A stretch of DNA of 53,223 nucleotides, from IMG/VR virus record IMGVR_UViG_3300048999_000018, positions 1-53,223 of that record. The stretch is one strand, 5' to 3'. Position numbers and translations under genes: made by a program. This stretch comes from a virus. Taxonomy: Duplodnaviria; Caudoviricetes. The notes below the pieces were generated by a model. The model was not told the origin of the DNA. It saw nothing but the letters and a program-made list of their open reading frames with translations, and ran no database searches. How positions within the stretch are numbered: the stretch's first letter is position 1; every line of letters starts with the position of its first letter. Below, piece after piece: positions 184-53,223 of this stretch.

Positions 184-453
184 CTAGGCTGACAGTCCGT
201 CAGTCGTCATGAGTGACGATGGATCAGCGATCTTTCGATAAACACCGAGAACGTTCTCACTCACGATCTCATCGATTGCTTGAAGACGAGCAAGCTCCTG
301 ATCAGCTTCTGATAGTTCATCAGATGTCTTGATCACTCTGGCAAGGAAGGCACTGGTGTTGTAGCCGGCGGCCATGTCCCATGCGTACCACTCATCGAAC
401 TTGGTGAATGGATTGAATGGATTGTCCACTGTTGTGAGCATGTAGTCAGCCAT
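184..453 (-). CDS. Small acidic phage protein coupled to the RNAP-like gene
   Basis: 89-aa ORF (LTTVDNPFNPFTKFDEW) overlapping the end of the RNAP-like gene by 8 nt. Confidence 0.75.
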   Translation of the reverse strand: MADYMLTTVDNPFNPFTKFDEWYAWDMAAGYNTSAFLARVIKTSDELSEADQELARLQAIDEIVSENVLGVYRKIADPSSLMTTDGLSA

Positions 454-3085
454 TCTCAGTCACCGCACTAAGGCTGCGCTTCAGAGTACTTACTGACACA
501 CCGAGAGCGTCTGCTACTTCAGCTGGGGTGTATCCAGACTGCAGCATGAGCACAGCTCTGTTCTTCTTGGTTGAGGTCATGAGGAGCTTGATCTTGGGTG
601 TGGCCAGCTGCTTGACTTGGTCAAGATCCGAATTGCTCAGGATCTGATTCAGTTTGTTGCTGCTGATTGCACCTGCCTGAATGGCAGCCCATTCTTGCTC
701 ACTGATCTCTATACGCTGCTTCTTGGCGCCTGTTCTGATTCGTGCCTGAGCCAGAGCTTGAGCTTTCAGTTTCTTAATCTCAGAAGCTTCCATATCTGGG
801 TTGGCCTTGGTCTTCTGGTCTACCATGGCGTTTGCCAGGATCTGGGCTTGTCTTTCGAGGGGGCTGTTCCTGAGAGCCAGGTTTAGATTGGCGTCAAGAG
901 TTTTCACTTCCTTGGCATAAGCGAGCTTAGCCGAAGGAGAGTAAGGAATGGGTTTGGTAGAAGCCGCTTCCTTACGTGCTGAGTTAGCCAAGGCCTTCAG
1001 CTTGTTCGAGTGGTCGGCATAGACCTTCTCAATGGGCGTACCAGAAGACAGGCTGTGTGCATTGTCGACGTTGCCCAGCTTTGTCACTTCAATGGTCTTA
1101 GTGACGAGCTTGCCGTGCTTGTCGACGAAGGTCTCGCCTGTGTTCTCGAATACCTTCTTCCCTGTCGCTAGATCGATGGGCCCACCGTTTGCTTTGGATC
1201 GGGGCTTACGATCAGGGATCCTGATTGTCGACGAGATGCCGGCATTCGAGATCAACGTGTTGGCGCCTGCTGTCTTTCCGCCTTGATACTTGGCTTTCAG
1301 AGCAGAGATGCCATTGTCGATGGCCGATTGCTTATAGTTCAGGTTATGCTTCTCAGCATCGATCACAACCATGGAGTGCCGAACTGCTGCAGCAAGCTCG
1401 GTCGTTGACGCTCCCTTAATGGTCATGTCGGTGATGAGATTGGAGACTTTGCCCATCTCCACTTGCTTCGTTTTGGGAGACATCCTCGGCATGCCATCGT
1501 AATGCGGGTAAGCACGCTGAGGGTCGAATCCCTTTAGCCCCTCAAGGGCAGGAGCGGTCTTTACACGGCCGCTATTGTTCGGGATGACCAGAACTGTGTC
1601 GCCGTCAAAGTCGGCCCCTGAGAGGCGTTCTGCGACCTTGCTGTGGATGCCAATGGCGTCCTTAGCATTACCCAGAAGTTTCTTCGCTTCTGGATGACGA
1701 TTGTTGACCGTAAGCTCAGGAATCTCGAAGATACCTCCATGAGGGTAGCGAACCAGAACAACGCGATCACCATCGCGATAGTTGGGCGCATATACCTCAC
1801 CCTCCTTCATGGAGTTGATTGGAAGTATGACGTGAGACCCTTGACGAGGAAGAGCCGCAGCCTTTAGGTGTACAGCCGCAGAGTCCACGTCATCGGCGTA
1901 CGAGTCGAGCAGACGCTTCTTTACTACTGGGTTCGTTAGAGACCTGATTTCGTCAAGCTCACGACTCTTGCGTTCGAACGTCATATCGAGCTGAGACTTG
2001 GCCAAAGCCGGACTCTGCTTCGACAGCATCTGAGAAGAAAGGCTCTTAGACCATTTCTCCCATGCGCCTTCTTCATTGACGATGTTCATGACGCCATGCT
2101 GCCGATCAATGAACGCACCGAAAGGGTTTTCTGGATCGCTCGATACCTCTTTCATGGCATCGAGTTTGTTTCCTGTATTGCTCTTGTTGGTGTTGAAGAC
2201 GAGATCCACGCCAGGAGGAAGGTCGTCTCGGTACATGGCCATACCCTTGAGATAGTGCGTACCGTCCACCGCGATACGTACTTGAGCATAACGGGATTCC
2301 CCGAGAGAAATGTCGTCTACCCCAGGACGAACATAGATAACGCCGTCAGCGTCCGCTCCGCCCTGTTCCGCATACCTTACAGATACACGCTTGGAGCTGA
2401 TCGGGGTCGGAGGCTTGATGTCGTTGTAGGAACGTCCACCGTCGTCCGAGAAGTTGGTGATCTGTTGGATCTTGTCTCGGTTCCGGTACAGCTCTTTGTA
2501 CTCTGTACCGGGAGCAGACAGAACCTTAACCGTGGTCTGATGACGCGTGCCAAGCTGTTCGATCTTGACGTAATCAACCTTATAGCCGTCTTCTTGAAGC
2601 TTGGCCACAGCGATTTTCAGTTTGTCATTGCTGATTCCGAGGTGACGCTCTACGCCAGCGCCGATATCGATATAGCTCTTTTGGGCGACCTGATCCCTGA
2701 GCATGTTCGACGTCGTTTCAAGAACGTCGGCTTTGTCCTTTGCTCCGTCGGCGAGGAGAGCACGAACTGAAGATTCGTTGACTCCCATTTGCTTGCCGAT
2801 GGCAACGTTGGAATAGCCCTTGTCCTTAAGGCGCTGAGCCATTCCAATGTCGGCTTGCTTCTCTGCAGTCTTGGCAATTGACTTGACGGCTCGAAGCTGA
2901 GTGGTCGTGATTCCGAAACCACGAGCAATTTCCGTCTCGCTCATGCCCTTGCTGTGAAGGTCGTCGACAGTGCTGAGGAACGTGCGGTTACGCTCGCTCT
3001 GGGTCTCGCCACTTCCCCAAGGATACCTTCCGGACTTCCGAAGGATTCCGTAGTGCGCGAGATAGTCGTCTTCCTTTACGATCAC
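446..3085 (-). CDS. Single-chain two-barrel (YonO-like) DNA-dependent RNA polymerase with terminal HTH domains
   Basis: ADFDGD metal-binding motif (D492-D496, nt 1598-1612), upstream RYP (R446), DG..I / QVR / KG motifs of the second barrel; HTH-like segments at the N-terminus (two) and C-terminus. Confidence 0.8.
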   Translation of the reverse strand: MIVKEDDYLAHYGILRKSGRYPWGSGETQSERNRTFLSTVDDLHSKGMSETEIARGFGITTTQLRAVKSIAKTAEKQADIGMAQRLKDKGYSNVAIGKQMGVNESSVRALLADGAKDKADVLETTSNMLRDQVAQKSYIDIGAGVERHLGISNDKLKIAVAKLQEDGYKVDYVKIEQLGTRHQTTVKVLSAPGTEYKELYRNRDKIQQITNFSDDGGRSYNDIKPPTPISSKRVSVRYAEQGGADADGVIYVRPGVDDISLGESRYAQVRIAVDGTHYLKGMAMYRDDLPPGVDLVFNTNKSNTGNKLDAMKEVSSDPENPFGAFIDRQHGVMNIVNEEGAWEKWSKSLSSQMLSKQSPALAKSQLDMTFERKSRELDEIRSLTNPVVKKRLLDSYADDVDSAAVHLKAAALPRQGSHVILPINSMKEGEVYAPNYRDGDRVVLVRYPHGGIFEIPELTVNNRHPEAKKLLGNAKDAIGIHSKVAERLSGADFDGDTVLVIPNNSGRVKTAPALEGLKGFDPQRAYPHYDGMPRMSPKTKQVEMGKVSNLITDMTIKGASTTELAAAVRHSMVVIDAEKHNLNYKQSAIDNGISALKAKYQGGKTAGANTLISNAGISSTIRIPDRKPRSKANGGPIDLATGKKVFENTGETFVDKHGKLVTKTIEVTKLGNVDNAHSLSSGTPIEKVYADHSNKLKALANSARKEAASTKPIPYSPSAKLAYAKEVKTLDANLNLALRNSPLERQAQILANAMVDQKTKANPDMEASEIKKLKAQALAQARIRTGAKKQRIEISEQEWAAIQAGAISSNKLNQILSNSDLDQVKQLATPKIKLLMTSTKKNRAVLMLQSGYTPAEVADALGVSVSTLKRSLSAVTENG

Positions 3086-3642
3086 GCCAGAGCCTCCTGT
3101 CTCAATTCTTCGATCCGCTTGTCAGAAGTGATGATCTTATCCATGATGTGAACGATCATGTCTGGGTCTGGATTGACGATGTCGACATCATCGCTCTGAT
3201 ATATACGCAACTCTATCTCGATCTGATGCGGCCTTTGGTGGTATTCGAGACAGAACAACGCAGTGTAGATGTAGAGCTGGTTCATGGACGATTTGACGAT
3301 ACCACTTTTGAAATCGTGGATTCGAAGAAACTTGTTACGGAAAGAGATCGCGTCTGTGGTCCCGTAACAATTATACGAGTAAAACAGAACTTGCTCAGGC
3401 GTCATCCCATACACGATGGCGTCGTTCACGTAGAGACTTAGCGTCGACCCATTGTCTGCTTGCAAGATTTTGAGTCGGATGGCTTCGTGAGCGAACGCGT
3501 GAAGTTCTGTTCCACGCTGGGCAGCCATAGCAGTCAAGAAACGAGAGTCCAGCTTCTCGTCGCTATAGTTGATCCAGTGGTAGTTGCTCGCGCTAAGAAA
3601 CGCGTGGGTGTTGGAGAGCTTCAAATGTTCGTTGAAGATCAT
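3082..3642 (-). CDS. PD-(D/E)XK Cas4/RecB-like nuclease
   Basis: GTELH...GTTDAI...IHDFKSG...QLYIY motifs; ATGA overlap with the RNAP-like start. Confidence 0.75.
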   Translation of the reverse strand: MIFNEHLKLSNTHAFLSASNYHWINYSDEKLDSRFLTAMAAQRGTELHAFAHEAIRLKILQADNGSTLSLYVNDAIVYGMTPEQVLFYSYNCYGTTDAISFRNKFLRIHDFKSGIVKSSMNQLYIYTALFCLEYHQRPHQIEIELRIYQSDDVDIVNPDPDMIVHIMDKIITSDKRIEELRQEALA

Positions 3643-3904
3643 CGAGTACTGCCTCTTGGTTCGAAGGATAGATAAACGCCGCGAAAGACATCTCGTTCAG
3701 CTTATGGACGTAGTAGTCTTGGTTTGGTTGAACGGAGGATTTCGCGCCGGCCTTAACTTCGAGCATCGCCCATCGGTCGTTGTAGAGAATCGTGAGGTCG
3801 GGGATTCCCTGCAAGTAGTCCGAATCGTTCTTCAGGATCACACAGCCTGGGAACAAGCGACGGAGCTCTTTGATGAGACGCGCTTGATAATTCCGCTCTA
3901 GCAT
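3593..3904 (-). CDS. VRR-NUC domain nuclease
   Basis: E..YQ, GIPDL, LEVK, QPNQ motifs in 103 aa. Confidence 0.8.
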   Translation of the reverse strand: MLERNYQARLIKELRRLFPGCVILKNDSDYLQGIPDLTILYNDRWAMLEVKAGAKSSVQPNQDYYVHKLNEMSFAAFIYPSNQEAVLDDLQRTFEALQHPRVS

Positions 3905-3953
3905 TGTGCAATCCTTTCGATACTAAAAATCAAAGCATATTCTACACCCTTCT

Positions 3954-3978
3954 ATTATAAGCAATGTATACGACGCGA
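3954..3978 (-). promoter_or_regulatory. Promoter-like repeat (copy 9) upstream of the nuclease-RNAP operon
   Basis: Minus strand TCGCG-tcgtat-ACA-ttgct-TATAAT; same spacing as the eight cassette copies but without the GAGACCCC tail. Confidence 0.65.
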
Positions 3979-6223: not shown

Positions 6224-6778
6224 TCAGTAGAAGAGCTTGATGATGTTGTAGGCTACTTCTTCCGAGATCTCCTTTTCGCTAGAATCCGATACAGGAGCCT
6301 CGCGCAAAGCCTTGTAGACCATCGCAAGAACTTTATCGTTACGAGCATGGATCTCCGGATTTGTGTGGTGCTCTCTCTGCATACGATCAGCGATGCTGTC
6401 AACCACTTCTTCGCCAACAGATATGTCTCTACCGCTGGTGTCGATGCCCACATGCTCAAGTAGACCTCGAATGCCTTGAACCCCCTTACACGAATCAGTG
6501 CATGCGTGATCGTCCTTGGGCTTCTCGAACGTATACTTGAACAGCTTGTTGGTGTATCGCTTGAACTTTCCGCCCATCCAAGTAAGCCAATCACCGACGT
6601 AAACCTGAGCCCTTACGTCATCAGGACCTTCGACGATCTCGAAATGGTTTTTATAACCACTCGCGAAATGACGTCTCTTCACCTCGCTGTTCATCATCTT
6701 AGCGACTTCGCCTATGTTCTCTTCCGTGATCCGTACTGCTCGGATCCTGAAAGACCTACGAACGTAGTCCTCAAGCAC
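6224..6778 (-). CDS. Hypothetical protein, 'EA.Q.T.EN...GDW' family with shared C-terminal helical tail
   Basis: Similar to 8239-8682 and 8679-9110; GGGGAG RBS. Confidence 0.7.
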   Translation of the reverse strand: MLEDYVRRSFRIRAVRITEENIGEVAKMMNSEVKRRHFASGYKNHFEIVEGPDDVRAQVYVGDWLTWMGGKFKRYTNKLFKYTFEKPKDDHACTDSCKGVQGIRGLLEHVGIDTSGRDISVGEEVVDSIADRMQREHHTNPEIHARNDKVLAMVYKALREAPVSDSSEKEISEEVAYNIIKLFY

Positions 6779-8017: not shown

Positions 8018-8239
8018 TCAGTTCTGCATGATCTTTATAGTCCTGTCGATGTATTCCTTTACCATCGCGAGCTCATTCTTCGCGGATTTAGGCTCCACCG
8101 ACAAAAACTCAGTGACCAGGTCCCAGAGAGCGTTGTACTTCAACGCCTCGTCCCAATAGTCTTCGAGTTCGTCCTTCGCTCTTAACGCCCTCAGCATCTT
8201 CACGAAGGCCTCATGCTCAGATTTGTACTTCTTGGCCAT
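8018..8239 (-). CDS. Hypothetical protein
   Basis: Start MAKKYK at a TGATG overlap with the upstream stop. Confidence 0.6.
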   Translation of the reverse strand: MAKKYKSEHEAFVKMLRALRAKDELEDYWDEALKYNALWDLVTEFLSVEPKSAKNELAMVKEYIDRTIKIMQN

Positions 8240-8682
8240 CAGAGAAGGATCTCGAAGATCTGGTGAGTGATCTCCTCGTCGACGCCGTCCATGATCCGAG
8301 ACTCGCCGTGGTAGGTTGCCACGTCCTGACGGGACATCGCGTCTTTCACGAGCTTCAGGACTGCCTCGAACTTGTTCTCGTCCGTGGGCTCGAAGGAGAT
8401 CCCGAAACCCTTCTTGGTGTACACCGCAAAGCCCTGACCGGTCTTCACAACCCAGCTGTTGACGAACGCCTGGTCGGGCCTGAACGTCTTGGCCTTCGAC
8501 AGGACGACGGGGACCTGGATGTACCAAACCGGAGTGTCAGAGGCGTTGTAGCGAGGAAGGTCTCGTGCATCCTTCTTGGTGCCACCGCACCACTCAGCGA
8601 CCTCAGCCATGTTCTCCGCGGTGACCTGTATCGCCTCGACGTTGAACGACTTACGAGTGAACTTGCCCGTGACGATGCTCAT
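8239..8682 (-). CDS. Hypothetical protein, 'EA.Q.T.EN' family
   Basis: Tandem paralogue of 8679-9110. Confidence 0.75.
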   Translation of the reverse strand: MSIVTGKFTRKSFNVEAIQVTAENMAEVAEWCGGTKKDARDLPRYNASDTPVWYIQVPVVLSKAKTFRPDQAFVNSWVVKTGQGFAVYTKKGFGISFEPTDENKFEAVLKLVKDAMSRQDVATYHGESRIMDGVDEEITHQIFEILL

Positions 8683-9110
8683 CCCATCTCCCCCTCGAAG
8701 ATTTCGACGATCTTGTTTGCGGCTTTTACAGCACGTCGATGAGTCTCGTGAAGTCCGTCATCAACGAGGTCAAGCAGGGCATGACGTATGATCTTGTAGA
8801 CTTCCTCGTGCCTGACCTCAGGATCGGTCAGCGTGTCCTGCTCAAAGGCTATCTTGAACGCCTCATTGCGATAGGCCTTGAACGAGCGATCTGTCCGAGT
8901 GACCCAATCGTGGACGAAAGCCTTGTCCCGCTTGACGCCGTTTTTTACGGTCACAGGAACTTCGATGTATGTTTTCAGAACTCCGTCAAAATCGCTTCTC
9001 TTGACGAACCCTTCACACCACTCAGCTATCTCGAAGATGTTCTCGGCGGTCACCTGCATTGCTTCAACCGAGAAAGTCTTACGAGTGAACCTCGTCGATT
9101 CTATTGTCAC
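8679..9110 (-). CDS. Hypothetical protein, 'EA.Q.T.EN' family
   Basis: FTRK.F.VEA.QVTAEN..E.AEWC shared with 8239-8682. Confidence 0.75.
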   Translation of the reverse strand: MTIESTRFTRKTFSVEAMQVTAENIFEIAEWCEGFVKRSDFDGVLKTYIEVPVTVKNGVKRDKAFVHDWVTRTDRSFKAYRNEAFKIAFEQDTLTDPEVRHEEVYKIIRHALLDLVDDGLHETHRRAVKAANKIVEIFEGEMG

Positions 9111-15862: not shown

Positions 15863-18800
15863 CTAGCTCACGAAGTCCTCGAAATCACCGAACTTCTCAA
15901 TGGTCTTTCGAGCCTCATCGGCGAGACGCTCGAAATACATCATGTCGATGATGATATCGCTGTCGGGATCTCCGACTTCAATGGACGTCTCGATCTTGTC
16001 CTTGACCATCTCAGCTTCAAGCCAGAAATAGTCTTTAGTGCCGGCGACGGCATAAGGCTTTTCGTCCTTCACCCGAAGCAGTATTCCGCCACCAGAAGTC
16101 TGATCCACGGGGACGAACAGCCCAGTACGACCGACGAAGTGCATTCCCTCGTAGGAGAACATCGGCTTGTTCACCGCATCGAAGTCGAGGTACATCGCCC
16201 CTTCCTTTACCTGCTTGGTTTCGCACAGGTCCTCGAACTCGATGTCTTCGCCCGTGAAGAGCGTCTTGTAGACGAACGGGTGCTGGAACTGCTTGCCCAC
16301 CGCCGTCCACTTGCGCTCGTAAGCTCCGGGGGGATCTTCCTCCACGGTCTTAGCGATGTACACGGCTTCGTTCACCAGACAGAGATCGTTGTACGTTGCC
16401 TCGTGCTCGAAGTCGTATCCGTACTGCTTTCCGAACTCGACGACCTGAGCGATCATCTCCTTGTCGGCATCGGGAATCTTGATCGAGTCGGTCTTGATGT
16501 GAGCGACCGTGAAACCGCACTCCTGGACGAAGTGCTTGAGGTCGATCATGAACAGCGCACCACGCTTGGCCACGATGTTGTCAACATTCCTCTTGTCCCT
16601 GAAAGGATTCGGGAACGTTGCCGACGTGTAACCGTAGATCGAGTTGATCACGAGCTTCAGGGCGTCTGAGACAGCCTTGGCGTTACTGTCGTCCACCTCG
16701 ATGCCGGGGAGCATTTCTGCAGCCCTACGGAAGTCACCGTGCTTCACAGCAAGGCGAGCCTCGACCAAACGAGCGAACTTCTCGGTATAAGGGCCGAACA
16801 GGTTCAACTTGATGATCGAAGTGGGGTGCATCGACGCAACATCCAGAAGAACGACGTCCTTGTACATGCCAGGTTCGGCATAGACATAGCCGCCTTCCCC
16901 GACGGTCTCGCCTCGATAGGTGCTCTTTTCGAGCTTGTCGAAGGGATCGAACTTGTAACCCGGAAACTCCTTGCTCAGATCCGTGTATACGAAGTCTTTC
17001 TGAGGATCCCTGACGTTGCCGAATATGATCTTCTCGGCATGCTTGCGGGTCGTATCGTTGACTGTGAGCCCACTGAGATTCGCCATGATCTGACGAGCCA
17101 TGAGATCGTTCTTGCGATTCTCAAGCAAGACCTCAGTCGAGACAACATCGTTCGCGCAGTACTCGACAACCTTCGGCCACAGTTCCTTCGGGACCGGCTT
17201 GTCCCAAGGGTGATCCATCTCTTGATGATGAATGCCGAGCTTAATCTGCCACTTCTTCAGCCCCATTTTCTCAGAGGCGAAGTCGTAGATATCGGCGTAG
17301 GAGACGTTGTAGGCCTCACCGAACATGGCGTTCTGATTGCCCGAAATGATCTTCTGCGAGAGCTCGTAAAGCTCCTTGTTGTCGTACCCCATATACGCAG
17401 CCCACAGAATATGGTTGTCGTACTTGCGGTTGTTGAACCCCACCAACTTGTACTGGAGAAGTTGCTCGATTTCCTGAGCACCAGGGTTGATCATCTTTAC
17501 GACAGTCTTTGACCCCTGATATTTCCAGCACACGACGAAGAGGTTTGGGAAGACCTCGACGTCATAAATGACCAAGCGATCGTCCTTGATCTGAGGCTCT
17601 TGTTCCTCGCCGGCGTTTTCCTCAGACTTGAATTGCATCTTCAGAACAGTCTTCAAGCAGATCAACGGCTGATGAGAGCTGTTGTTGGCGAACGCCATGA
17701 TCCTAGGACGCAGATCAGTCACGTCATAGACGATCCCAGACTTGTGAGCATCGTCCAGAATCTTCTGAATGAAATCGATTGACGGCTTGGTGCCCGGGTG
17801 GATCTCCTTCCTCAGATTTCGGGCGATCAGGTCGCGGAGCCCCCTTTCGCTTTGGAGAGTGTTCTTCTCAAGCACTGGCTTCTTCTCCTTGAATGGGAGC
17901 CCGCTATTTATTGTTGCAACGGGCACATTGTTACATTTCGTCAGCTTGCGTCGGAGTGATGAGTTTCCGACATAGACCTTGATCTCGATTCCATCAGAAT
18001 ATACTGACGCAAGTTCCGAAACATCACCGTCGTAGGTATAGTGAAGATGAACACCACCCCCGGATTTGCTGAGCTCGGCATAGGTGGCGGGCCATACGGA
18101 CGCAGCCCCAAGATTTCGTTCGAGGGATTTCTCACCCTTGTCATCCTTCAAATCGAAATCGATCACGATGTGATTCTCTGGAACCTTGACGAAATGCAAC
18201 TTGGTCGTGTCGATATCAGAGAGCTTGGTCTTTACGTTCTCCCATTTCGACTTAGGAGTTTCCTCCTCGGTCCCATACTGAGCCGATTGATCTGCATACT
18301 CAATGTCAAAGATGGATTCGTCTTCGTCCATCACCAACGAATAAGTAGGCGGTTTCGTGATCGGCTCAACAGGAGTTCTGAAAGGTTGTGCTGTGAAGCC
18401 GACGAAATAACTACGCACATCCACGCCATCGACGTTATATCGATCACGAAAGTCCTCGAAGTAGTTTTTGAGTTCTTCGCGGAACTTATGCAAAGGAAGC
18501 TTGTAGTCGAGTTCGCTCTCCAGGCAGTACTCCTTGTACAAGACATAAGCCTGTTTCAGACTCGTGCCGTTCTGCTCTTTGAAGATATCGTAATTCGCTT
18601 CGATGAAGTTGAAGAACACATCCGTCTGGAGCATCATGTCCAGTGGGCGGTACGAATTGTAGTAGTTCTTCCCCATTTGGCGATAGACTCCGAGGCAGTG
18701 GTATGCAATTGCACCAAGCTCGAAATCGATTTGCGACATCAATGCGTAGTAGTGATCCGGATCAAACTTGTTGCCGGTAGGTTTCACGTCGATAAGACGG

Positions 18801-19666
18801 CGAATAAGACCAGACTTGGCGTCGGTGATCTTCACAGGCTTGTTGGTGCCCATGAACAACAGAGCGTGGATCTTCGCCATGTATCCGGGCTTGTACTTCT
18901 CGTTGATCAGCATGGCGTCGTGCCCAACAATCGAGTTGAGCTTGCTGTTGTCGTCGATCTTGGACAGATCGCCATCGTGCTGAATCGCAACGAGTGGGTT
19001 GCTCTTGAATGCTTCCGTGGAGAACGAGTTGTTGTTCCCCACGAGAGCCTTCGCCTCGAACATCGCCACATAGCCAACGAACAGCTTTTCGACGATCTTC
19101 AAGATGGTGGACTTACCTGTGCCACCGGGTCCGTAGAACACCAAGAACTTTTCGATCTTCTTGGCGTCACCAGAAATAACGGACCCGATAGCCCATTCGA
19201 TCTTTGCTCGTTCCTCTTCCGAGTAGAGGAATCCAACTAGCTCGTCCCAGGCCTTGATGTCACCTTGAGCGAGATTGTACGAAAGCCGGCGGCTGGTGTA
19301 ATCCGACTTCTTCACTTCTGTGTTGGCGAACGTCAATTTCATGTCAAGCTGATGAGAGTTATCGCTGACGTTCTTGCAGAACTTCTTGAACTGGTTCCAG
19401 CCGTTGTTGCTGTACTCTTCGAGATACTTCGGACTGCACGAAACCCCGTTTGCCCGCTGTTCCTCGGCGTACTTCTTGATCTCTTCATCCACAAGACGAA
19501 CGACGTCGTATTCGTCAGTGGACCAGAGTTTGGCTTCTTCGTCCCATATGGCATAGAACGATTGCCCCCGGACCATCAAGTCCTTGGATCTGCCGACAAC
19601 GAAATCGGGGCGCACCTCGACGATACCGCCCCGGACCTCTTTCGTGCTAATCCGAAAGAAATCCAT
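15863..19666 (-). CDS. SF3 helicase - primase - 3'-5' exonuclease - family B DNA polymerase fusion
   Basis: GPGGTGKST Walker A; VIDFD and SKSGGGVHLHY primase motifs; YDVE, GFNN.KYD and YC.ND exonuclease motifs; DVASMHP, KLVINSIYG and KTDS PolB motifs. Confidence 0.9.
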   Translation of the reverse strand: MDFFRISTKEVRGGIVEVRPDFVVGRSKDLMVRGQSFYAIWDEEAKLWSTDEYDVVRLVDEEIKKYAEEQRANGVSCSPKYLEEYSNNGWNQFKKFCKNVSDNSHQLDMKLTFANTEVKKSDYTSRRLSYNLAQGDIKAWDELVGFLYSEEERAKIEWAIGSVISGDAKKIEKFLVFYGPGGTGKSTILKIVEKLFVGYVAMFEAKALVGNNNSFSTEAFKSNPLVAIQHDGDLSKIDDNSKLNSIVGHDAMLINEKYKPGYMAKIHALLFMGTNKPVKITDAKSGLIRRLIDVKPTGNKFDPDHYYALMSQIDFELGAIAYHCLGVYRQMGKNYYNSYRPLDMMLQTDVFFNFIEANYDIFKEQNGTSLKQAYVLYKEYCLESELDYKLPLHKFREELKNYFEDFRDRYNVDGVDVRSYFVGFTAQPFRTPVEPITKPPTYSLVMDEDESIFDIEYADQSAQYGTEEETPKSKWENVKTKLSDIDTTKLHFVKVPENHIVIDFDLKDDKGEKSLERNLGAASVWPATYAELSKSGGGVHLHYTYDGDVSELASVYSDGIEIKVYVGNSSLRRKLTKCNNVPVATINSGLPFKEKKPVLEKNTLQSERGLRDLIARNLRKEIHPGTKPSIDFIQKILDDAHKSGIVYDVTDLRPRIMAFANNSSHQPLICLKTVLKMQFKSEENAGEEQEPQIKDDRLVIYDVEVFPNLFVVCWKYQGSKTVVKMINPGAQEIEQLLQYKLVGFNNRKYDNHILWAAYMGYDNKELYELSQKIISGNQNAMFGEAYNVSYADIYDFASEKMGLKKWQIKLGIHHQEMDHPWDKPVPKELWPKVVEYCANDVVSTEVLLENRKNDLMARQIMANLSGLTVNDTTRKHAEKIIFGNVRDPQKDFVYTDLSKEFPGYKFDPFDKLEKSTYRGETVGEGGYVYAEPGMYKDVVLLDVASMHPTSIIKLNLFGPYTEKFARLVEARLAVKHGDFRRAAEMLPGIEVDDSNAKAVSDALKLVINSIYGYTSATFPNPFRDKRNVDNIVAKRGALFMIDLKHFVQECGFTVAHIKTDSIKIPDADKEMIAQVVEFGKQYGYDFEHEATYNDLCLVNEAVYIAKTVEEDPPGAYERKWTAVGKQFQHPFVYKTLFTGEDIEFEDLCETKQVKEGAMYLDFDAVNKPMFSYEGMHFVGRTGLFVPVDQTSGGGILLRVKDEKPYAVAGTKDYFWLEAEMVKDKIETSIEVGDPDSDIIIDMMYFERLADEARKTIEKFGDFEDFVS

Positions 19667-23129: not shown

Positions 23130-23142
23130 GGTGATCCTTTCG

Positions 23143-23177
23143 TAGGGGTCTCATTATAGCCCCTGTTATTACTGCGA
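23143..23177 (-). promoter_or_regulatory. Promoter-like repeat, copy 8
   Basis: TCGCA-gtaata-ACA-ggggc-TATAAT-GAGACCCCTA. Confidence 0.8.
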
Positions 23178-25891: not shown

Positions 25892-25926
25892 AAAAAACCA
25901 TAAGCCGGGTTAGGGTCTTATGGTTT
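25892..25926 (-). terminator. Cassette 7 hairpin (CTAAC loop)
   Basis: AAACCATAAGACC-CTAACCC-GGCTTATGGTTTTTT. Confidence 0.7.
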
Positions 25927-25950
25927 GTTGAGCGTCCTTGAGTTGGTGTA

Positions 25951-26145: not shown

Positions 26146-26158
26146 GATGTTCCTTTCA

Positions 26159-26193
26159 TAGGGGTCTCATTATACCCCATGTATTTTCTGCGA
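26159..26193 (-). promoter_or_regulatory. Promoter-like repeat, copy 7
   Basis: TCGCA-gaaaat-ACA-tgggg-TATAAT-GAGACCCCTA. Confidence 0.8.
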
Positions 26194-26201
26194 ATCGAGA
26201 T

Positions 26202-26239
26202 AAAAACCTAAAGACCGGGTTAGGGTCTTGTTGGTTTTT
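26202..26239 (-). terminator. Cassette 6 hairpin (CTAAC loop)
   Basis: AAAAACC..AAGACC-CTAACCC-GGTCTT..GGTTTTT. Confidence 0.7.
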
Positions 26240-26259
26240 GGTATCCTTCTTGATTGATC

Positions 26260-26436
26260 TCAGTCTTCGTTGACGGTGTCTTCTTCGTTGAACAGGTACT
26301 TCAGGCCGTAGTAGACAGCAGCGGTGACGGCGATGGGCAGGACGATTTTCGTCAGCACCAGCTTCTTCACCAGCCGGCTGTTTTCAGCGGCGAGTTGTTC
26401 CTTGTTCATCTTCTGAATTTCGTTCCACGACTTCAT
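26260..26436 (-). CDS. Cassette 6, 58-aa membrane protein (not in ORF track)
   Basis: MKSWNEIQKMNKEQLAAENSRLVKKLVLTKIVLPIAVTAAVYYGLKYLFNEEDTVNED; AAGGA RBS. Confidence 0.7.
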   Translation of the reverse strand: MKSWNEIQKMNKEQLAAENSRLVKKLVLTKIVLPIAVTAAVYYGLKYLFNEEDTVNED

Positions 26437-26450
26437 GGGATGTCCTTAGA

Positions 26451-26485
26451 TAGGGGTCTCATTATAGCCCCTGTATTTCTTGCGA
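26451..26485 (-). promoter_or_regulatory. Promoter-like repeat, copy 6
   Basis: TCGCA-agaaat-ACA-ggggc-TATAAT-GAGACCCCTA. Confidence 0.8.
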
Positions 26486-26486
26486 A

Positions 26487-26681
26487 TTACTGTTCCCAAC
26501 CGTCCATCCACTCGTCAATTGACATGGGAGCGTATTCGTCTGCCGGCCAAACGCTACAAGGGCTAACGGGATTAGCCATGATCCAATCAAGAATTTCGTG
26601 ATCGGTTCCCTTGAACAAGGGCTTCATTTTTCGGTCAAGAACTGTCCCGCATTTTCCATATTTATCGGCTCGTCTAACCAT
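26487..26681 (-). CDS. Hypothetical protein
   Basis: VLDRKMKPLFKGT..E...W motif shared with 7699-8004. Confidence 0.65.
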   Translation of the reverse strand: MVRRADKYGKCGTVLDRKMKPLFKGTDHEILDWIMANPVSPCSVWPADEYAPMSIDEWMDGWEQ

Positions 26682-27160
26682 CAGTATCTCCCGTATACCG
26701 CTGTCGAGCCACCCGTCGTGTACTCAGAAATCGGGGCGTTGATGACTACCTTGTAACCTCGGTAACTTCCGGTGTTGGCGTTGGTCATTACGGCCTTACC
26801 ACCGAAAATGCCTGTGAATATACCCACATGGTAAACATGGCCGCTGCGGTCTTTGATGAACACCAGATCACCGATTGCACGAGAACCAGCGCTTATGTGT
26901 TTGGACTTGTTGTACTGATCCTGCGCAGTGCGAGGCAAAGTCTTTCCGTGTGTCTTGTACGCCCACCACACAAGTCCAGAGCAGTCATAACCCTTGACGT
27001 AACCGCCCTCAGCACCGTACGTGTACTTCGCGCCCTTTTGACCGTGAGCACTTACCATGGCTGCGTTCCTGAGCGTTGCAGCATTTGCGTCTGGGATGGA
27101 AAGAAAGAATGTTCCGAATGCCAGACCAAATATGACTGCGAGCTTTATGGTGCTTTTCAT
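26681..27160 (-). CDS. Secreted NlpC/P60 (C40) peptidoglycan endopeptidase
   Basis: Signal peptide MKSTIK...ANA; Y.YGA, YDCSGLV, LPRTA..Q, GDLVF, HVGI. Confidence 0.85.
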   Translation of the reverse strand: MKSTIKLAVIFGLAFGTFFLSIPDANAATLRNAAMVSAHGQKGAKYTYGAEGGYVKGYDCSGLVWWAYKTHGKTLPRTAQDQYNKSKHISAGSRAIGDLVFIKDRSGHVYHVGIFTGIFGGKAVMTNANTGSYRGYKVVINAPISEYTTGGSTAVYGRY

Positions 27161-27353
27161 GATACTACCCAATCGGTTGAAGGAGATATTACTGAAACAT
27201 GCCGATTCGCTCAGGGAATTTCTTTTGTGCTTGGTAGAACGACCGGCAGGCATATACTGAAGCCTTTTGTCCGGGAGGTATCAGCCTCCAATATCCCCCA
27301 CGCTTTTTCCACTTGCCACTTGTTCTTGGCGGGCATGACTATGCCCAATCCTC

Positions 27354-27569
27354 TCAGAACGTATCTCGCTTCCACTCACTGAGCTTCGGCAAATGCCATG
27401 CGTGCAATTCGTCCGGAGTCATTTTGTCTAGAGCTTCCCCTTCTAGACAAGCCAACATTCCGTACACCATTACCCACAGTTTTGTGCCATCTTCAGATAC
27501 CCGATAGGAATCAGGCTTGACTGGGTGAGTTAGTGCAGTATAGGCGTCCAACCATTCTAGATATCTCAC
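27354..27569 (-). CDS. Hypothetical protein
   Basis: 71-aa ORF in operon context. Confidence 0.55.
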   Translation of the reverse strand: MRYLEWLDAYTALTHPVKPDSYRVSEDGTKLWVMVYGMLACLEGEALDKMTPDELHAWHLPKLSEWKRDTF

Positions 27570-27575
27570 GTTGTG

Positions 27576-27716
27576 TTACTTCCCCTCAGTCTCTTCCGCA
27601 ATTGTGTCAGCAATCGCTTCTGCTGTTTCCGGGTCATTGTCGAGAGCCGCAGCAACATCCTGAGGCGAGTTGATCTCGGTAATGCTTCCGTCCTGATTGA
27701 CCCACATCAAACCCAT
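27576..27716 (-). CDS. 46-aa acidic peptide (not in ORF track)
   Basis: MGLMWVNQDGSITEINSPQDVAAALDNDPETAEAIADTIAEETEGK; AGGA RBS. Confidence 0.55.
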   Translation of the reverse strand: MGLMWVNQDGSITEINSPQDVAAALDNDPETAEAIADTIAEETEGK

Positions 27717-27784
27717 TGTGTTTCCTGCTTTCTTTGAAGAGTTTGGTGAAATTACTCCGCCGGGAATTTTTCAAGAATCGGTTA

Positions 27785-27973
27785 CTATCCCTTTTCATAC
27801 CTCTCGTTCATCTTGTTGAGAGATTCCTTGTAGTCTTTCTTGATTTCTTCGATGGAATCATGGTAGATCCTACGAGCTTCCGCCATGGTTTTTCTGTAAC
27901 TTCGATCGAGCACGAGAATATAGATCAGACCGCCGAGAAGCCAAACAGAAAGAACAACGATCGTGAGTAGCAT
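27785..27973 (-). CDS. Small membrane protein
   Basis: Hydrophobic N-terminus followed by a coiled tail. Confidence 0.6.
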   Translation of the reverse strand: MLLTIVVLSVWLLGGLIYILVLDRSYRKTMAEARRIYHDSIEEIKKDYKESLNKMNERYEKG

Positions 27974-27990
27974 AGTTAGATCTCCATTTC

Positions 27991-28028
27991 AAAAACATAA
28001 AACCCGTGTTAAGGGCTTTAGAGGTTTT
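27991..28028 (-). terminator. Cassette 5 hairpin (TTAAC loop)
   Basis: AAAAC..TAAAGCCC-TTAACAC-GGGTTTTA.GTTTTT. Confidence 0.65.
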
Positions 28029-28044
28029 GTATGAAAACAACTTT

Positions 28045-28233
28045 CTAGTAAATCTGCCTTGCATCCCGAATTGTCTGCAGATCAGGATCCTCGAACAGAT
28101 CGGCCAATGCCTTCTGGGCACTGTTCGTGCTCATGTCTCTTGGCGAGAGAACGCGAATGATTCCAATAATGGCATCGATCAATCCGACCGTGATTCCTTC
28201 TTCGTCACGACAACTCTGAGTTTCCTCAGGCAT
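28045..28233 (-). CDS. Cassette 5 small protein
   Basis: 62 aa, AGGAG RBS after the repeat. Confidence 0.7.
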   Translation of the reverse strand: MPEETQSCRDEEGITVGLIDAIIGIIRVLSPRDMSTNSAQKALADLFEDPDLQTIRDARQIY

Positions 28234-28246
28234 GTGATCTCCTAGG

Positions 28247-28281
28247 TAGGGGTCTCATTATATGCCGTGTTTTTTCTGCGA
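28247..28281 (-). promoter_or_regulatory. Promoter-like repeat, copy 5
   Basis: TCGCA-gaaaaa-ACA-cggca-TATAAT-GAGACCCCTA. Confidence 0.8.
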
Positions 28282-28286
28282 AGACG

Positions 28287-28317
28287 AAACTCAAAGCCCT
28301 TGTTAGGGCCCGGAGTT
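28287..28317 (-). terminator. Cassette 4 hairpin (CTAAC loop)
   Basis: AACTC.GGGCCCT-AACA-AGGGCTT.GAGTTT. Confidence 0.6.
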
Positions 28318-28332
28318 GGTTGTGAGGGTTGT

Positions 28333-28572
28333 CTACTTGTTGTCGGCGCTCTTGGTCTTCTTGACGGCGATCTCACCCAGAATGTCAACGACCTTTATGG
28401 CAACGATGATTACACCGACCGTGATGGCAGTGCGCTTCAGAACGTCTTTAGCGATCTCAGTTACGAGTTCACCAGAGGCGGTTCCGATTCGCTCTTCCAT
28501 GGTGGCGGATGAATCTTTGTTTTCTTTGGGGGTCTTGACGAGTACGGGCTTGATAGCGTAGCGGTTAAACAC
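28333..28572 (-). CDS. Cassette 4 small membrane protein
   Basis: 79 aa, AITVGVIIVAI segment. Confidence 0.7.
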   Translation of the reverse strand: MFNRYAIKPVLVKTPKENKDSSATMEERIGTASGELVTEIAKDVLKRTAITVGVIIVAIKVVDILGEIAVKKTKSADNK

Positions 28573-28586
28573 GGCGTTCCAATCTG

Positions 28587-28621
28587 TAGGGGTCTCATAA
28601 TAGGCCGTGTTTTTTCTGCGA
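28587..28621 (-). promoter_or_regulatory. Promoter-like repeat, copy 4
   Basis: TCGCA-gaaaaa-ACA-cggcc-TATTAT-GAGACCCCTA. Confidence 0.8.
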
Positions 28622-28650
28622 AGTTGTTAGAGATCACTCTCATTTTGACG

Positions 28651-28685
28651 AAACATAAAGGCCGGGTTAGGGCCTTTAGAGGTTT
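28651..28685 (-). terminator. Cassette 3 hairpin (CTAAC loop)
   Basis: AAAC..TAAAGGCC-CTAACCC-GGCCTTTA.GTTT. Confidence 0.65.
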
Positions 28686-28804: not shown

Positions 28805-28818
28805 GGAAGGGCCTTTCG

Positions 28819-28853
28819 TAGGGGTCTCACTATAATCCTTGTAATTCCTACGA
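28819..28853 (-). promoter_or_regulatory. Promoter-like repeat, copy 3
   Basis: TCGTA-ggaatt-ACA-aggat-TATAGT-GAGACCCCTA. Confidence 0.75.
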
Positions 28854-29133: not shown

Positions 29134-29147
29134 GTGGGTTCCTTTCG

Positions 29148-29181
29148 TAGGGTCTCATTAAAAGCCATGTTTTTCTTGCGA
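29148..29181 (-). promoter_or_regulatory. Promoter-like repeat, copy 2
   Basis: TCGCA-agaaaa-ACA-tggct-TTTAAT-GAGACCCTA. Confidence 0.75.
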
Positions 29182-29558: not shown

Positions 29559-29573
29559 AGCATACTCCTTACA

Positions 29574-29608
29574 TAGGGGTCTCACTATACCCTATGTATT
29601 ATATGCGA
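29574..29608 (-). promoter_or_regulatory. Promoter-like repeat, copy 1
   Basis: TCGCA-tataat-ACA-taggg-TATAGT-GAGACCCCTA. Confidence 0.8.
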
Positions 29609-40685: not shown

Positions 40686-41474
40686 CTATGTAGAACTGAT
40701 GGTGTAGCTGTCTTCATCAATGAACACTGCAGTCGATGCTGTAATGGAGAATGTCGTTGAATCCAGCATACGAATAACGTCGAACGGAGCGGTAGCAGTC
40801 CATGTTCCATCGCCATGATCGACGATCGTGAGAGAGGATATGGTATCGAAGATCTCGATCAATTCTGCGAAGGCCGGAATTCTTGCGGGATCCGAATCAG
40901 TCCCGTAAAGAACGTCCTCCACAAGAGAAAGAATCGATGGATCCGTGGATCGCGAATCGATTATGACGTGCGCCATCGGCTTGTATGCAACGATGGCCGG
41001 TGGGCGAGTTGTGATCTTCCAACTAAAGTCGGTTGGATCACTGGATTCACCGAGCGTCTTGTTTGATCGGTCAGTCGGAGAAGCAAGAGCGTTATAGACT
41101 ATGTGAATCTTATAGCCCAGGTCGCCGGCGAGATCATTCCCAACGTTTGTTCGATACGACAAACCGAAAGACTGACGCCTTTGCTGAGTTATGAACATTC
41201 CAGGACGAGGCTGGAAAGTTCCATCGCAATGCGTGAACTCATCAGGGTATGTGAAAGCCGTAATAGTTGCTTCGAATTCTTCAGCACCAGGCACGTTCAA
41301 ATACTTGACGCCGTCGATGTAGAAAGGTTTGGCGTCTCCGCCAGAAGAAGTCTCGTTGACTCCAGTCAAACCATTCCAAGCAACACCTGCTAGCTCTCCG
41401 ACATACAGAACCCCTCGGTCAATGCCAGCTTCATAGAAGCGAGAACCAGCAACGCCCCAAGTGAGCTTTGGCAT
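40686..41474 (-). CDS. Second major-tail-like protein
   Basis: Paralogue of 42065-42934 (L.W...G.R..E.G.DRGVLY, AWNGLT, AFTYPDEF). Confidence 0.85.
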   Translation of the reverse strand: MPKLTWGVAGSRFYEAGIDRGVLYVGELAGVAWNGLTGVNETSSGGDAKPFYIDGVKYLNVPGAEEFEATITAFTYPDEFTHCDGTFQPRPGMFITQQRRQSFGLSYRTNVGNDLAGDLGYKIHIVYNALASPTDRSNKTLGESSDPTDFSWKITTRPPAIVAYKPMAHVIIDSRSTDPSILSLVEDVLYGTDSDPARIPAFAELIEIFDTISSLTIVDHGDGTWTATAPFDVIRMLDSTTFSITASTAVFIDEDSYTISST

Positions 41475-49042: not shown

Positions 49043-49951
49043 CTACTTCTTCAACAGACCAGCAACTTGCTTTGCAGCTACTCCGGCCGCAGCCTTTGTG
49101 AGTTCTTGCTTGCCGATGCTCAGAAGCGTGTCTGTAATGAACTTGGTGGTTGCCTTCCGACCGGTTGCCGGCTGAAGACGAGTGAATTGCTGTTCCAAGT
49201 TCATCCTCGTGACGAGATCCTGAAGCTCTTTAGTAGTGAGAGCCTTAGTGCCTCCGGACTTCACCTTGGCCTTGGACTCAGCGGCTCGTTGAGCATCATC
49301 AGAAGACGGATGTGCCGTCGGAGTTCCCTTGCCTCCACGAACACCCCACTTCATACCCTTGACGCCGAAATGCTCAAGAACGTCATCTACAGCTGCTCGG
49401 CCCAGATCGGCCTGAGACACAGCAACCTCCATGTCGCCTGAGTATTCGAGCTTGAATGTGGGACCCGCTGAGTCGCTCGTCCACAAAGCGACTCGATCGA
49501 AGTTCACCCACGAGAATCCAGGGAATTCTCTGTCGTCCTTCTTGGCTGGGTTGTCCGGGAACCCCATCGTCAAATGCGGATTCCACTCGTCGAACTGACT
49601 CGTCGATAGAAAAGCTTTCGAAATCAGTTCGTTCTTCAGAAGCTGACCGCGGAATGTATCCACAGCCTTAGTCCACTTCTTGTTGAAGAACAATACATCA
49701 GCTTGGCTTGTTCCCAACACACCGCGTTCCTTCACTTCCAGCCCGAAAGGCTGAAGCAGAGAAGCCGCATGTTCTACGAATCCAGTGACGAGAGTCAACT
49801 CAGACGCGTCATAACCAGGAGAACCCAAGTACAAAAGAGTCAAGTGTGGTTCTTTATCACTTGAGAATTTCAGCACTGGATCAGATTCGGGCGGGAGAGC
49901 TACGATGACAACCTGTTGATTCTTACCGACTAGGGATTTGGGTTCGTCCAT
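49043..49951 (-). CDS. 2H phosphoesterase fused to an HFG.KGMKWG domain
   Basis: Two HxT motifs (PHLTL, PHLTM); C-terminal LEHFGVKGMKWGVR...EL...V.R.NLEQ. Confidence 0.7.
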   Translation of the reverse strand: MDEPKSLVGKNQQVVIVALPPESDPVLKFSSDKEPHLTLLYLGSPGYDASELTLVTGFVEHAASLLQPFGLEVKERGVLGTSQADVLFFNKKWTKAVDTFRGQLLKNELISKAFLSTSQFDEWNPHLTMGFPDNPAKKDDREFPGFSWVNFDRVALWTSDSAGPTFKLEYSGDMEVAVSQADLGRAAVDDVLEHFGVKGMKWGVRGGKGTPTAHPSSDDAQRAAESKAKVKSGGTKALTTKELQDLVTRMNLEQQFTRLQPATGRKATTKFITDTLLSIGKQELTKAAAGVAAKQVAGLLKK

Positions 49952-50304
49952 GAATCCCCCTCTCTCACAACGTTGAGACGCCATTCAAGTTCTTTGATCT
50001 GCTTGTCCATCGCATCGAGAACGAAAGAAGTAATCGTGGCGTTATCGAATAGAAGCCGAACTCTGAGACCTATGTAACTCTTGACAGAAATCAGTCTCAA
50101 ATCATCACCGAGAAAGGCGTCCCACGTGGGGGTAGAATTCTCGATCATGTAACCTTCAGGCGGACCGATACCCAGTTGAGTAAGAGTCGAGAACACTGAG
50201 TTGATGTGCAACAGAATAACGGGATCGAAAACCGTTAGACTCGCATCGACTCCGAGAATGTTTTTGATACTTGTCAGAATGCTGGTTTCAGCCACGGTGA
50301 ACAC
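49930..50304 (-). CDS. Head-tail connector (gp6-like) protein
   Basis: SIL.SIK..LG....FD..I..HINS.F..L.QLG.GP, V.L.FD, ELEWRL. Confidence 0.7.
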   Translation of the reverse strand: MFTVAETSILTSIKNILGVDASLTVFDPVILLHINSVFSTLTQLGIGPPEGYMIENSTPTWDAFLGDDLRLISVKSYIGLRVRLLFDNATITSFVLDAMDKQIKELEWRLNVVREGDSWTNPNP

Positions 50305-53127: not shown

Positions 53128-53223
53128 AGTTTCAACTCCTTTCGGAGGGGTTCATGACAAGCGAAAGAGGGGTGGGTCAAGGGCGGGGAGACTTTCCCGG
53201 ACCTGCAAAGCAAAAACTTTCTC

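Follow-up and report, generated by a model that had tools for sequence, protein, structure and literature searches.

Which template is copied, and from which promoter, by a polymerase-like phage protein that carries its own DNA-binding modules is the question raised by the penultimate gene of an uncultured Caudoviricetes genome (IMG/VR record IMGVR_UViG_3300048999_000018, positions 1 to 53,223; this whole stretch of 53,223 nt is referred to here as the window). The gene (446..3085; all genes, protein domains and motif copies given below lie on the minus strand) encodes an 879-residue homologue (P0001) of single-chain two-barrel RNA polymerases, as indicated by its open reading frame (ORF), a match to the protein family phrog_4291, and its predicted fold. 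This family is already catalogued and has been described computationally, and the idea of a polymerase is not new; what is added here is a conserved candidate promoter that travels with the polymerase gene, whereas the nature of the family is already in print. The reading towards which the evidence leans, if only slightly, is that of a factor-independent DNA-dependent RNA polymerase that reads this motif and is perhaps delivered with the virion, and the link between polymerase and motif is itself judged somewhat better than even.

The predicted two-barrel core and its DNA-binding modules

The polymerase ORF begins with GTG, preceded at 8 nt by a GGAGG ribosome-binding site, and shares 4 nt (GTGA) with the end of the exonuclease gene that lies before it. 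The original prediction, made from the letters of the window, had named a DFDGD loop together with the R-x-P, DG, QxR, and KG motifs of double-psi-barrel polymerases. All of these are present, DFDGD at residues 492-496 in agreement with that numbering, and are kept across an alignment of 129 sequences (the polymerase plus 128 homologues drawn from two large sets of proteins, at 44-98% identity), and because of this conservation they can be regarded as features of the family rather than chance strings. Residues D492, D494, G495, D496, R446, P448, G248, Q268, R270, K280, G281, and K312 are invariant (129/129), with D247 and F493 present in at least 90% of the sequences. The D492-F-D494-G-D496 codons (1598..1612), identified by sequence and invariance, specify the predicted Mg-binding catalytic loop, and the DxDGD loop and upstream R-x-P that mark the two-barrel superfamily are represented by six invariant residues. 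The eight residues reported as invariant in two-barrel polymerases include an acidic and two basic residues of the beta-like barrel (D837, K979, and K987 in Rpb2; PMC2919709), for which D247, K280, and K312 are the sequence candidates. Beyond the barrels, M544, G545, N549, L550, D553, D576, and K579 are also invariant in the alignment.

A structure model was made with AlphaFold2 using the homologue alignment (mean predicted local distance difference test score (pLDDT) 88, predicted template modelling score 0.78); only residues 1-26 and 212-224 fall below a pLDDT of 50, and the polymerase core is modelled above 90. The two double-psi beta-barrel (DPBB) domains on which the original prediction of a two-barrel RNA polymerase depended are both present in the predicted model, where they form one active site. 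The first, beta-like barrel (DPBB-B; residues 226-345, 2051..2410, with model strands spanning 234-338) carries D247-G248, Q268-x-R270, K280-G281, and K312, and structural alignment to QDE-1, RDR2, and gp64 begins at about residue 226. A helical hairpin (residues 351-406) lies between the barrels in the model, followed by the beta-prime-like barrel (DPBB-A; residues 407-502, 1580..1867) with R446-x-P448 and the metal loop. Residues 503-714 (944..1579) are modelled as helices and hairpins that co-align with QDE-1, RDR2, and gp64 in a bridge-helix-like region; the co-aligned ranges reach residues 705-714, or 788 for RDR2, and the helices and hairpins of the model run from 503 to 785.

When the model was compared with the PDB using Foldseek, the top matches were all two-barrel polymerases. 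QDE-1, against which the original prediction had proposed such a comparison, was the best match (E 2.8e-10), followed by the P23-45-type Thermus-phage gp64 (3.8e-9), P74-26 gp62 (1.6e-8), RDR2 (3.6e-8), and the tape-measure-fused P23-45 gp96 (9.5e-5), with bacterial beta-prime subunits and the crAss-like gp66 next at about 1e-3. Searches of PDB sequences with the protein and with the family profile returned matches to helix-turn-helix (HTH) proteins only, the polymerase matches being far from significant (8h2n_A, E 0.35; AR9 beta-prime, E 1.9-2.1). NCBIfam holds no model for the polymerase core, and BFVD gave no close full-length match, the best being other phage proteins named 'RdRP' and P23-45 gp64. 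Judging by the model and the conserved residues, the gene probably encodes a catalytically competent single-chain two-barrel RNA polymerase with a core of residues ~226-714.

Most GenBank records call the protein a 'helix-turn-helix DNA binding domain protein', and only HTH domains pass the Pfam thresholds, as would be expected of a DNA-binding regulator with a vestigial polymerase core. The catalytic and substrate-site residues are nevertheless invariant in sequences down to 44% identity, in a core predicted with high confidence; since a dead enzyme would not keep invariant catalytic residues, this explanation is scarcely credible. The RefSeq and PHROGs name, 'RNA-dependent RNA polymerase' (RdRP), would instead have the enzyme turn transcripts of the phage or the host into double-stranded RNA, for example in gene regulation or counter-defence. 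Likeness to RdRP-type structures (QDE-1, RDR2) is indeed the strongest in the PDB, despite a Pfam RdRP match (PF05183, residues 483-578, E 0.028) that scores 13.5 bits against a cut-off of 23.8. QDE-1, however, is reported to have both RNA- and DNA-templated activity, the phage enzymes that have been tested (YonO and gp64) are reported to be DNA-dependent, and the four or five fused HTH modules, which are of the type that binds double-stranded DNA, argue for DNA; an RNA template is therefore considered very improbable.

The three HTH segments originally proposed (residues 47-64, 91-108, and 851-869) proved to be real, each being covered by profile matches and by a helix pair in the model. The two N-terminal units lie within residues 29-136 (2678..3001), a region with phrog_3855, phrog_7061, CENP-B_N, and RepB matches. 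Residues 47-64 fall under phrog_3855 (29-65, E 9.6e-9) and a CENP-B_N match below its cut-off (46-68, E 9.3e-4), and residues 91-108 under phrog_7061 (81-111, E 8.4e-7), with model helices at 50-57/61-88 and 93-100/104-111. They are followed in the model by a small alpha/beta domain (residues 138-201, 2483..2674) with a helix-helix-hairpin order (helices 145-149 and 153-165, strands 169-176 and 183-190), in which G167 is invariant and Y168 and T184 nearly so, and which appears winged-helix-like from its secondary structure. At the C-terminus, two three-helix HTH units occupy residues 796-878 (452..700; Pfam, phrog_664 over 761-872, and model), including a further unit at 796-828 that is seen in the model. 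The Pfam HTH matches there span residues 841-878, no other Pfam family exceeds its threshold, and the segment at 851-869 is the strongest Pfam match of the protein (HTH_23, E 2.5e-10; HTH_7, 2.1e-9; Sigma70_r4_2, 4.9e-7). Although Sigma70_r4_2 (841-873) scores 29.7 bits against a cut-off of 25.7, the generic HTH_23 and HTH_7 models score higher, no match to sigma-70 region 2 was found, and the NCBIfam sigma models fall far below their cut-offs, so the protein is not assigned to the sigma-70 family. An HTH Pfam domain is present in all 120 homologues among the matches listed.

The candidate promoter and its possible readers

A search for repeats across the window picked out a conserved intergenic element that is present eight times between 23.1 and 29.6 kb, in front of eight small genes. 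The motif is rigid, about 36 nt long, and of the form TCGCA-N7-ACA-N5-TATAAT-GA (gene-strand consensus TTCGCAGAAAAAACAnGGGnTATAATGAGACCCCTAC). All eight copies lie on the gene strand, with a ribosome-binding site and start codon 17-27 nt past the A/T box: 29573..29608 (the first after the tail and holin genes), 29146..29181 (with the C run one base shorter), 28818..28853, 28586..28621, 28246..28281, 26450..26485, 26158..26193, and 23142..23177 (the last before the long block of replication genes). The 12-nt core of the motif occurs 8 times against 1.34 expected, a number reached in none of 100 shuffles, and a looser core (ACA, five bases, an A/T-rich hexamer, and two purines) is found at 9 sites on the gene strand, against 2 on the opposite strand. 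A ninth, variant copy (TCGCG-N7-ACA-N5-TATAAT-AG, 3952..3978) lies 49 nt before the start of a VRR-NUC nuclease gene (3593-3904) and 882 nt before that of the polymerase. Given this position, the variant appears to head a predicted operon of the VRR-NUC gene, a Cas4/RecB-like exonuclease gene (3082-3642, overlapping the VRR-NUC gene and co-oriented with it), and the polymerase.

Three terminator-like sites consisting of a hairpin and a T run separate small units of this region (28656-28678, 27998-28020, and 26211-26229, together spanning 26211..28678 on the minus strand; repeat families D2 and D7), with the loop CCCTAACCCGG in two and a variant in the third. The terminator-like hairpins, including another at 25892-25930, thus share a conserved loop or a close variant of it in addition to the stem and T run. 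In Streptomyces phage RosaAsantewaa, three hairpins are each followed by TTAGGGTTT (L001 3870, 4180, and 4600).

The motif was compared in relatives represented by five complete genomes and the right half of a sixth. The full element is found in RosaAsantewaa (with 7 copies of the looser core) and in Gordonia phage Duffington (6 full copies), and Arthrobacter phage Nason has 9 copies of the TCGCG variant. In Lactococcus phages P118 (about 9 copies) and 1706 (about 11), the upstream half differs, but the ACA-N5-box-purine-purine core is kept, so that this core is common to six out of six polymerase-bearing genomes compared, whose hosts span two phyla. In Nason (L002), tandem motif-like boxes 35 nt apart are also seen at 17570-17640, ahead of one gene.

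Used as a BLAST query, a 56-nt motif copy matched 557 places in 124 of 50,697 phage records, exclusively from phages of Gordonia (55), Streptomyces (39), Arthrobacter (23), Rhodococcus (4), and Microbacterium (3). For Gordonia and Rhodococcus, the numbers of motif-positive and polymerase-positive records are the same, and five of five tested motif-positive records from outside the displayed polymerase lists encode the polymerase (E at most 3.9e-277). In a survey of 80 viral-contig loci with the polymerase, of which 13 with less than 1.6 kb of upstream sequence were dropped, the strict core occurs within 1.6 kb upstream of the polymerase at 24 of the 67 remaining loci on the gene strand versus 4 on the other strand. 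Most of these hits (22 of 26, at 21 of the 67 loci) lie 876-1016 nt upstream of the polymerase, the same place as the copy in the window. Six soil-metagenome DNA runs from three studies, one of which may have yielded the window, contain all or part of the promoter region, and the run search listed no RNA sequencing run containing it.

The one paper found on the element describes it in Gordonia phage Vardy, where it is called a '50-bp motif' and is taken to contain a sigma-70 -10 box, and makes no mention of the polymerase (PMC9671010). A literal search of the literature for four motif strings found no phage paper. For Thermus phage P23-45, relatives with the enzyme are reported to share its motif and relatives without it to lack the motif (bioRxiv 10.1101/2022.12.01.518664), and the reasoning that would link motif and polymerase here parallels that case.

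In the favored reading, the beta-like barrel would supply basic residues and the beta-prime-like barrel would carry R446-x-P448 and the Mg-binding aspartates, and the enzyme would copy phage double-stranded DNA into RNA without a sigma factor. The fused HTH modules would dock the enzyme on the ~36-nt promoter, and RNA would start at the conserved purine pair just past the A/T box. The promoter would head the eight small mid-genome transcription units and its variant the nuclease/exonuclease/polymerase operon. The first polymerase molecules would then most simply be borne by the virion, because the polymerase gene itself sits behind the same type of promoter, and such delivery would fit a conserved disordered tag at the N-terminus.

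Four properties of the motif argue against the host sigma factor as its reader. A scan for sigma-70-type sites between 22500 and 30500 returned three, none of which coincides with a motif copy, and the upstream boxes of the motif lie 5 and ~14 nt from the A/T hexamer, not 16-18. Every phage compared keeps the two purines that follow the box, as expected of a start site, and in phage 1706 the ribosome-binding site begins only 3-4 nt past the box. Primary sigma factors need an A at position 2 of the -10 hexamer. In RosaAsantewaa, 5 of 7 hexamers have a T at this position, while the flanking ACA, GG, and ATGAGACCCC are invariant.

The main alternative is a late polymerase resembling YonO. In this scheme the host RNA polymerase with its primary sigma factor would read the TATAAT motif, first for early genes and later for the polymerase operon, and the phage enzyme would transcribe the ~23-kb structural block from one or a few promoters, possibly across the joined genome ends. 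YonO offers a reported precedent in its single late operon with one start site. The penultimate polymerase gene comes to lie directly upstream of the structural genes once the ends of this co-directional genome are joined, and the structural genes are closely spaced, a crude map of them showing only two gaps of more than 60 nt, and include no motif copy. The alternative must nevertheless contend with the absence of a -35 box at 16-18 nt, the failure of the sigma-70 scan to flag any copy, and the RosaAsantewaa hexamers without A at position 2. Host sigma factors would also leave unexplained the conservation of the fixed-spacing ACA and purine pair from phages of Actinobacteria to those of Lactococcus. 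No candidate late promoter was found at the joined ends or in the 201-nt gap at 50305-50505. A TCGC...ATGAGA string across the joined ends has a spacing unlike that of the motif and was put down to chance, and the gap looks like coding sequence. Altogether, a late polymerase of this kind is considered unlikely, though by no means negligible.

A number of points weigh against the polymerase as reader of the motif. The structural block (about 29.9-53.1 kb) contains no motif copy, so that its genes must depend on a promoter of another type. Most copies have a perfect TATAAT, the consensus -10 hexamer, as their A/T box, and the box was read as a sigma-70 element in phage Vardy. The small genes of the mid-genome region, with their strong promoters and terminators, have the look of classic early genes read by the host, and for a polymerase gene at the far genome end behind a promoter of the same class, transcription by the host is no worse a fit than delivery with the virion. 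The start site is a soft argument, given that a host-type start 7 nt past the box would still leave the 1706 ribosome-binding site at the 5' end of the transcript. Motif and gene share ancestry, so their co-occurrence is not independent evidence of a functional link. Finally, the literature search found no biochemical, transcript, or virion study of any PHROG 4291 member.

Virion delivery as a lead

Delivery of the polymerase with the virion is a lead rather than a result, and is suggested by three weak observations, concerning the N-terminus of the protein, a structural label in a relative, and unusually long members of the family. The protein begins with a conserved peptide, L-x-H-Y-G ... 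S-G-R-Y-P-W-G-S-G (residues 1-26, 3008..3085), that is predicted to be disordered (pLDDT <50) and in which G13, S18, G19, and G24 are invariant and H11, R20, Y21, S25, and G26 are kept in at least 90% of the alignment. It is possibly a capsid-targeting or cleavage tag. When the first 47 residues were scanned alone, residues 6-14 weakly resembled DUF7211 (PF23847, E 0.016, 15 bits against a cut-off of 27). A DUF7211 tag that scores above threshold occurs in a 313-residue head-region protein (49043..49984) that profiles divide into a LigT-like 2H phosphoesterase (residues 42-148), apparently intact with two H-x-T motifs, a DUF7211 tag (198-216; E 6.4e-11, 41.9 bits against 27), and a tail of ~100 residues. 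This protein could be an injected enzyme, and a 2H-type anti-defence nuclease would be a guess at its function. In the metagenome protein P0127, the same LigT-like domain stands directly ahead of a full polymerase.

The fusion of protease (residues 6-132) and capsid (346-596) domains encoded at 43573-45633 (686 residues) has about eight histidines in its spacer, mostly in hydrophobic-x-His sites of the same kind as at the polymerase N-terminus, whereas the capsid part has one histidine. The last of the spacer sites, A-L-Q-H-G, lies some 40 residues ahead of the capsid-family match, and these sites are possibly maturation cut sites.

The structural label is found in the GenBank record of Rhodococcus phage ReqiPoco6, where the homologue is noted as 'similar to Lactococcus phage 1706_gp75 structural protein'; the 1706 record itself applies 'structural protein' at scattered points beyond its morphogenesis block, a pattern that a virion proteome would leave. 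Five long forms of 1655-2020 residues (P0147, P0174, P0274, P0275, and P0276) contain the polymerase core without the terminal HTH domains. Three of them have a common N-terminal extension of ~1000 residues, in one case with a portal domain in front (PF04860, E 2.9e-29), which suggests that in the portal-fused lineage the polymerase gene adjoins or is joined to the portal gene.

Against delivery, it has to be considered that the ReqiPoco6 label is a database note, that the DUF7211 likeness of the polymerase is below threshold, and that the long forms are single metagenome sequences (four on one contig each and P0275 on two) that may be artefacts. The full picture, in which a self-contained enzyme is delivered with the virion by means of a cleavable head-loading tag and uses its fused HTH domains, with no sigma factor, to read a ~36-nt promoter whose core is conserved between phages of Actinobacteria and Firmicutes, is accordingly offered as a tentative proposal that stands a fair way short of being probable. 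If true, it would be the first two-barrel RNA polymerase whose promoter recognition is modular and built in, and would provide a minimal orthogonal transcription system of natural origin.

Genome context and related systems

The description of the window as a 53-kb siphophage in the original prediction is borne out by its terminase, portal, and tape-measure genes and by the lack of any sheath match among the 53 large ORFs scanned. The window is a complete or nearly complete 53.2-kb genome drawn in reverse, with all 53 of these ORFs on the minus strand. From 53.1 kb, the gene order is a small gene, an HNH nuclease, terminase, portal, the protease-capsid fusion, two major tail proteins, a 1767-residue tape measure, and tail-tip and holin genes, followed by the stretch of small genes. 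These are succeeded by a 1267-residue primase/polymerase fusion, an annealing protein, a helicase, an HNH nuclease, the VRR-NUC nuclease, the Cas4/RecB-like exonuclease, and the polymerase. The last gene (184..453, 89 residues, phrog_4303) overlaps the polymerase stop, and a small gene fills this slot in every relative examined; in the window, as in the records of six out of six relatives, the polymerase occupies the last place but one at the right end of the genome. The order of nuclease, exonuclease, and polymerase genes is also found in relatives.

This neighborhood raises the possibility that the enzyme is a replication or recombination helper, making primer or R-loop RNA at an HTH-bound origin together with the nuclease, exonuclease, and helicase, and not mRNA. 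Such a role would suit a gene that closes a replication and recombination block (helicase, HNH, VRR-NUC, and Cas4-like exonuclease, the last overlapping it), in an order kept in the four actinophage relatives whose right ends were compared, and in the long form P0275 a DUF5906 primase-helicase-type region is fused to the polymerase core. P0275 is, however, a single sequence, and in the lactococcal relatives the polymerase follows the lysin, not nucleases. The phage also has a conventional candidate primase in its 1267-residue replication protein (15863-19666), which combines a DUF5906/D5-type primase-helicase region (about residues 136-410) with a DNA polymerase (phrog_4210) and whose copies in relatives are named DNA primase/polymerase. 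As priming would moreover leave nine dispersed motif copies before ribosome-binding sites unexplained, the helper role is considered improbable, and transcription of phage DNA from the motif is preferred.

Other features of the window include three paralogous genes (6224-6778, 8239-8682, and 8679-9110; phrog_14977) with a weak nucleotide pyrophosphohydrolase match, which also form DNA repeat family D3, and paralogous major tail protein genes (40686-41474 and 42065-42934, both phrog_2645) that are likewise annotated in Nason and Duffington. The window ends (1-120 and 53128-53223) are non-coding, and the right end has an A/T-rich stretch and a G/C-rich inverted repeat.

The match of the polymerase to PHROG 4291 is full-length (E 0, 1349 bits, residues 3-873 on positions 6-906 of a 909-position profile). 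By tblastn, the family is present in 250 of 50,697 phage records at 40-68% identity, mainly from phages of Arthrobacter (95), Gordonia (55), Streptomyces (54), Lactococcus (13), and Curtobacterium (7), and it comprises at least 8000 clusters at 90% identity and 918 clusters at 50% identity with E below 1e-30. The member studied here, from an uncultured soil phage, is at most 68% identical to that of any isolate, and a 98% identical copy is found on another metagenome contig. Koert et al. (bioRxiv 10.1101/842583) reported the same protein as a signature gene of an actinophage supercluster and of Lactococcus and Faecalibacterium phages, noted an HHpred RdRP match of 95.7%, the terminal HTHs, and the DxDGD loop, and suggested RNA polymerase activity. 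Earlier, the phage 1706 protein was placed among five 'YonO-like' families (Ruprich-Robert & Thuriaux 2010, PMC2919709).

As a discovery in the window the result is modest, since the gene family and its likely nature have already been published. How small single-chain two-barrel polymerases find promoters is an open question, and this family offers an enzyme with attached DNA-binding modules, while the conserved candidate promoter makes the sigma-independent recognition that was originally proposed testable. If the link holds, it would explain the transcription program of several hundred isolated Arthrobacter, Gordonia, Streptomyces, and Lactococcus phages, correct the names 'HTH DNA binding protein' and 'RNA-dependent RNA polymerase', and provide a compact polymerase-promoter pair for Gram-positive synthetic biology.

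Among known systems, the Lactococcus phage 1706 ORF75 and the actinophage supercluster protein share the motifs, terminal HTH domains, and penultimate position, and show no essential difference. YonO of the Bacillus prophage SPbeta is likewise a single-chain phage enzyme (about 840-880 residues) with two-barrel catalytic residues. The likeness to YonO claimed in the original prediction holds for the catalytic motifs but does not extend to family membership: phrog_8308, which YonO itself matches with E 0, gives the present protein only E 0.0014, confined to residues 425-504, and when the family alignment was compared with the single YonO sequence by hhalign, the probability was 1%. Profile scans of YonO found phrog_8308 and two families of unknown function, and no HTH family. 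YonO is described as a processive DNA-dependent RNA polymerase that transcribes the SPbeta late genes as one operon from a single start site, the authors leaving open whether it recognizes its promoter alone or with helper factors (Forrest et al. 2017, PMC5467207), whereas the present phage has nine dispersed candidate promoters.

The Thermus phage enzymes P23-45 gp64 and P74-26 gp62 (PDB 8F72, 8F5M) have no detectable sequence similarity to the polymerase. According to Chaban et al. (bioRxiv 10.1101/2022.12.01.518664), gp64 is a DNA-dependent enzyme of about 600 residues with its own promoters, is not part of the virion, and is produced once a second polymerase, which is carried by the virion and fused to the tape measure, has acted; the term helix-turn-helix does not appear in their text. 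QDE-1 and RDR2 (PDB 2J7N, 7Y7P-T, 7W82, 7ROZ) are eukaryotic, use RNA templates (QDE-1 also DNA), and are without HTH modules. The crAss-like phi14:2 gp66 (PDB 6VR4) and P23-45 gp96 (PDB 8H2M/8H2N) share the fold (Foldseek E 2.2e-3 and 9.5e-5, respectively), although each forms a domain of a giant virion protein (2180 and 5002 residues, respectively), and the polymerase, as a free protein of 879 residues, would require a tag to target it to the particle. Their logic, that of an injected enzyme reading phage-specific early promoters, would be common to the polymerase described here if the virion lead holds.

Outside the two-barrel superfamily, the arrangement proposed here is reminiscent of the T7-type RNA polymerases, which are single polypeptides that use no sigma factor and whose promoter is long and rigid, its A/T-rich box lying immediately ahead of a purine at which RNA starts. 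The T7-type enzymes, however, have an unrelated right-hand fold and recognize their promoters by loops of their own, not by fused HTH domains.

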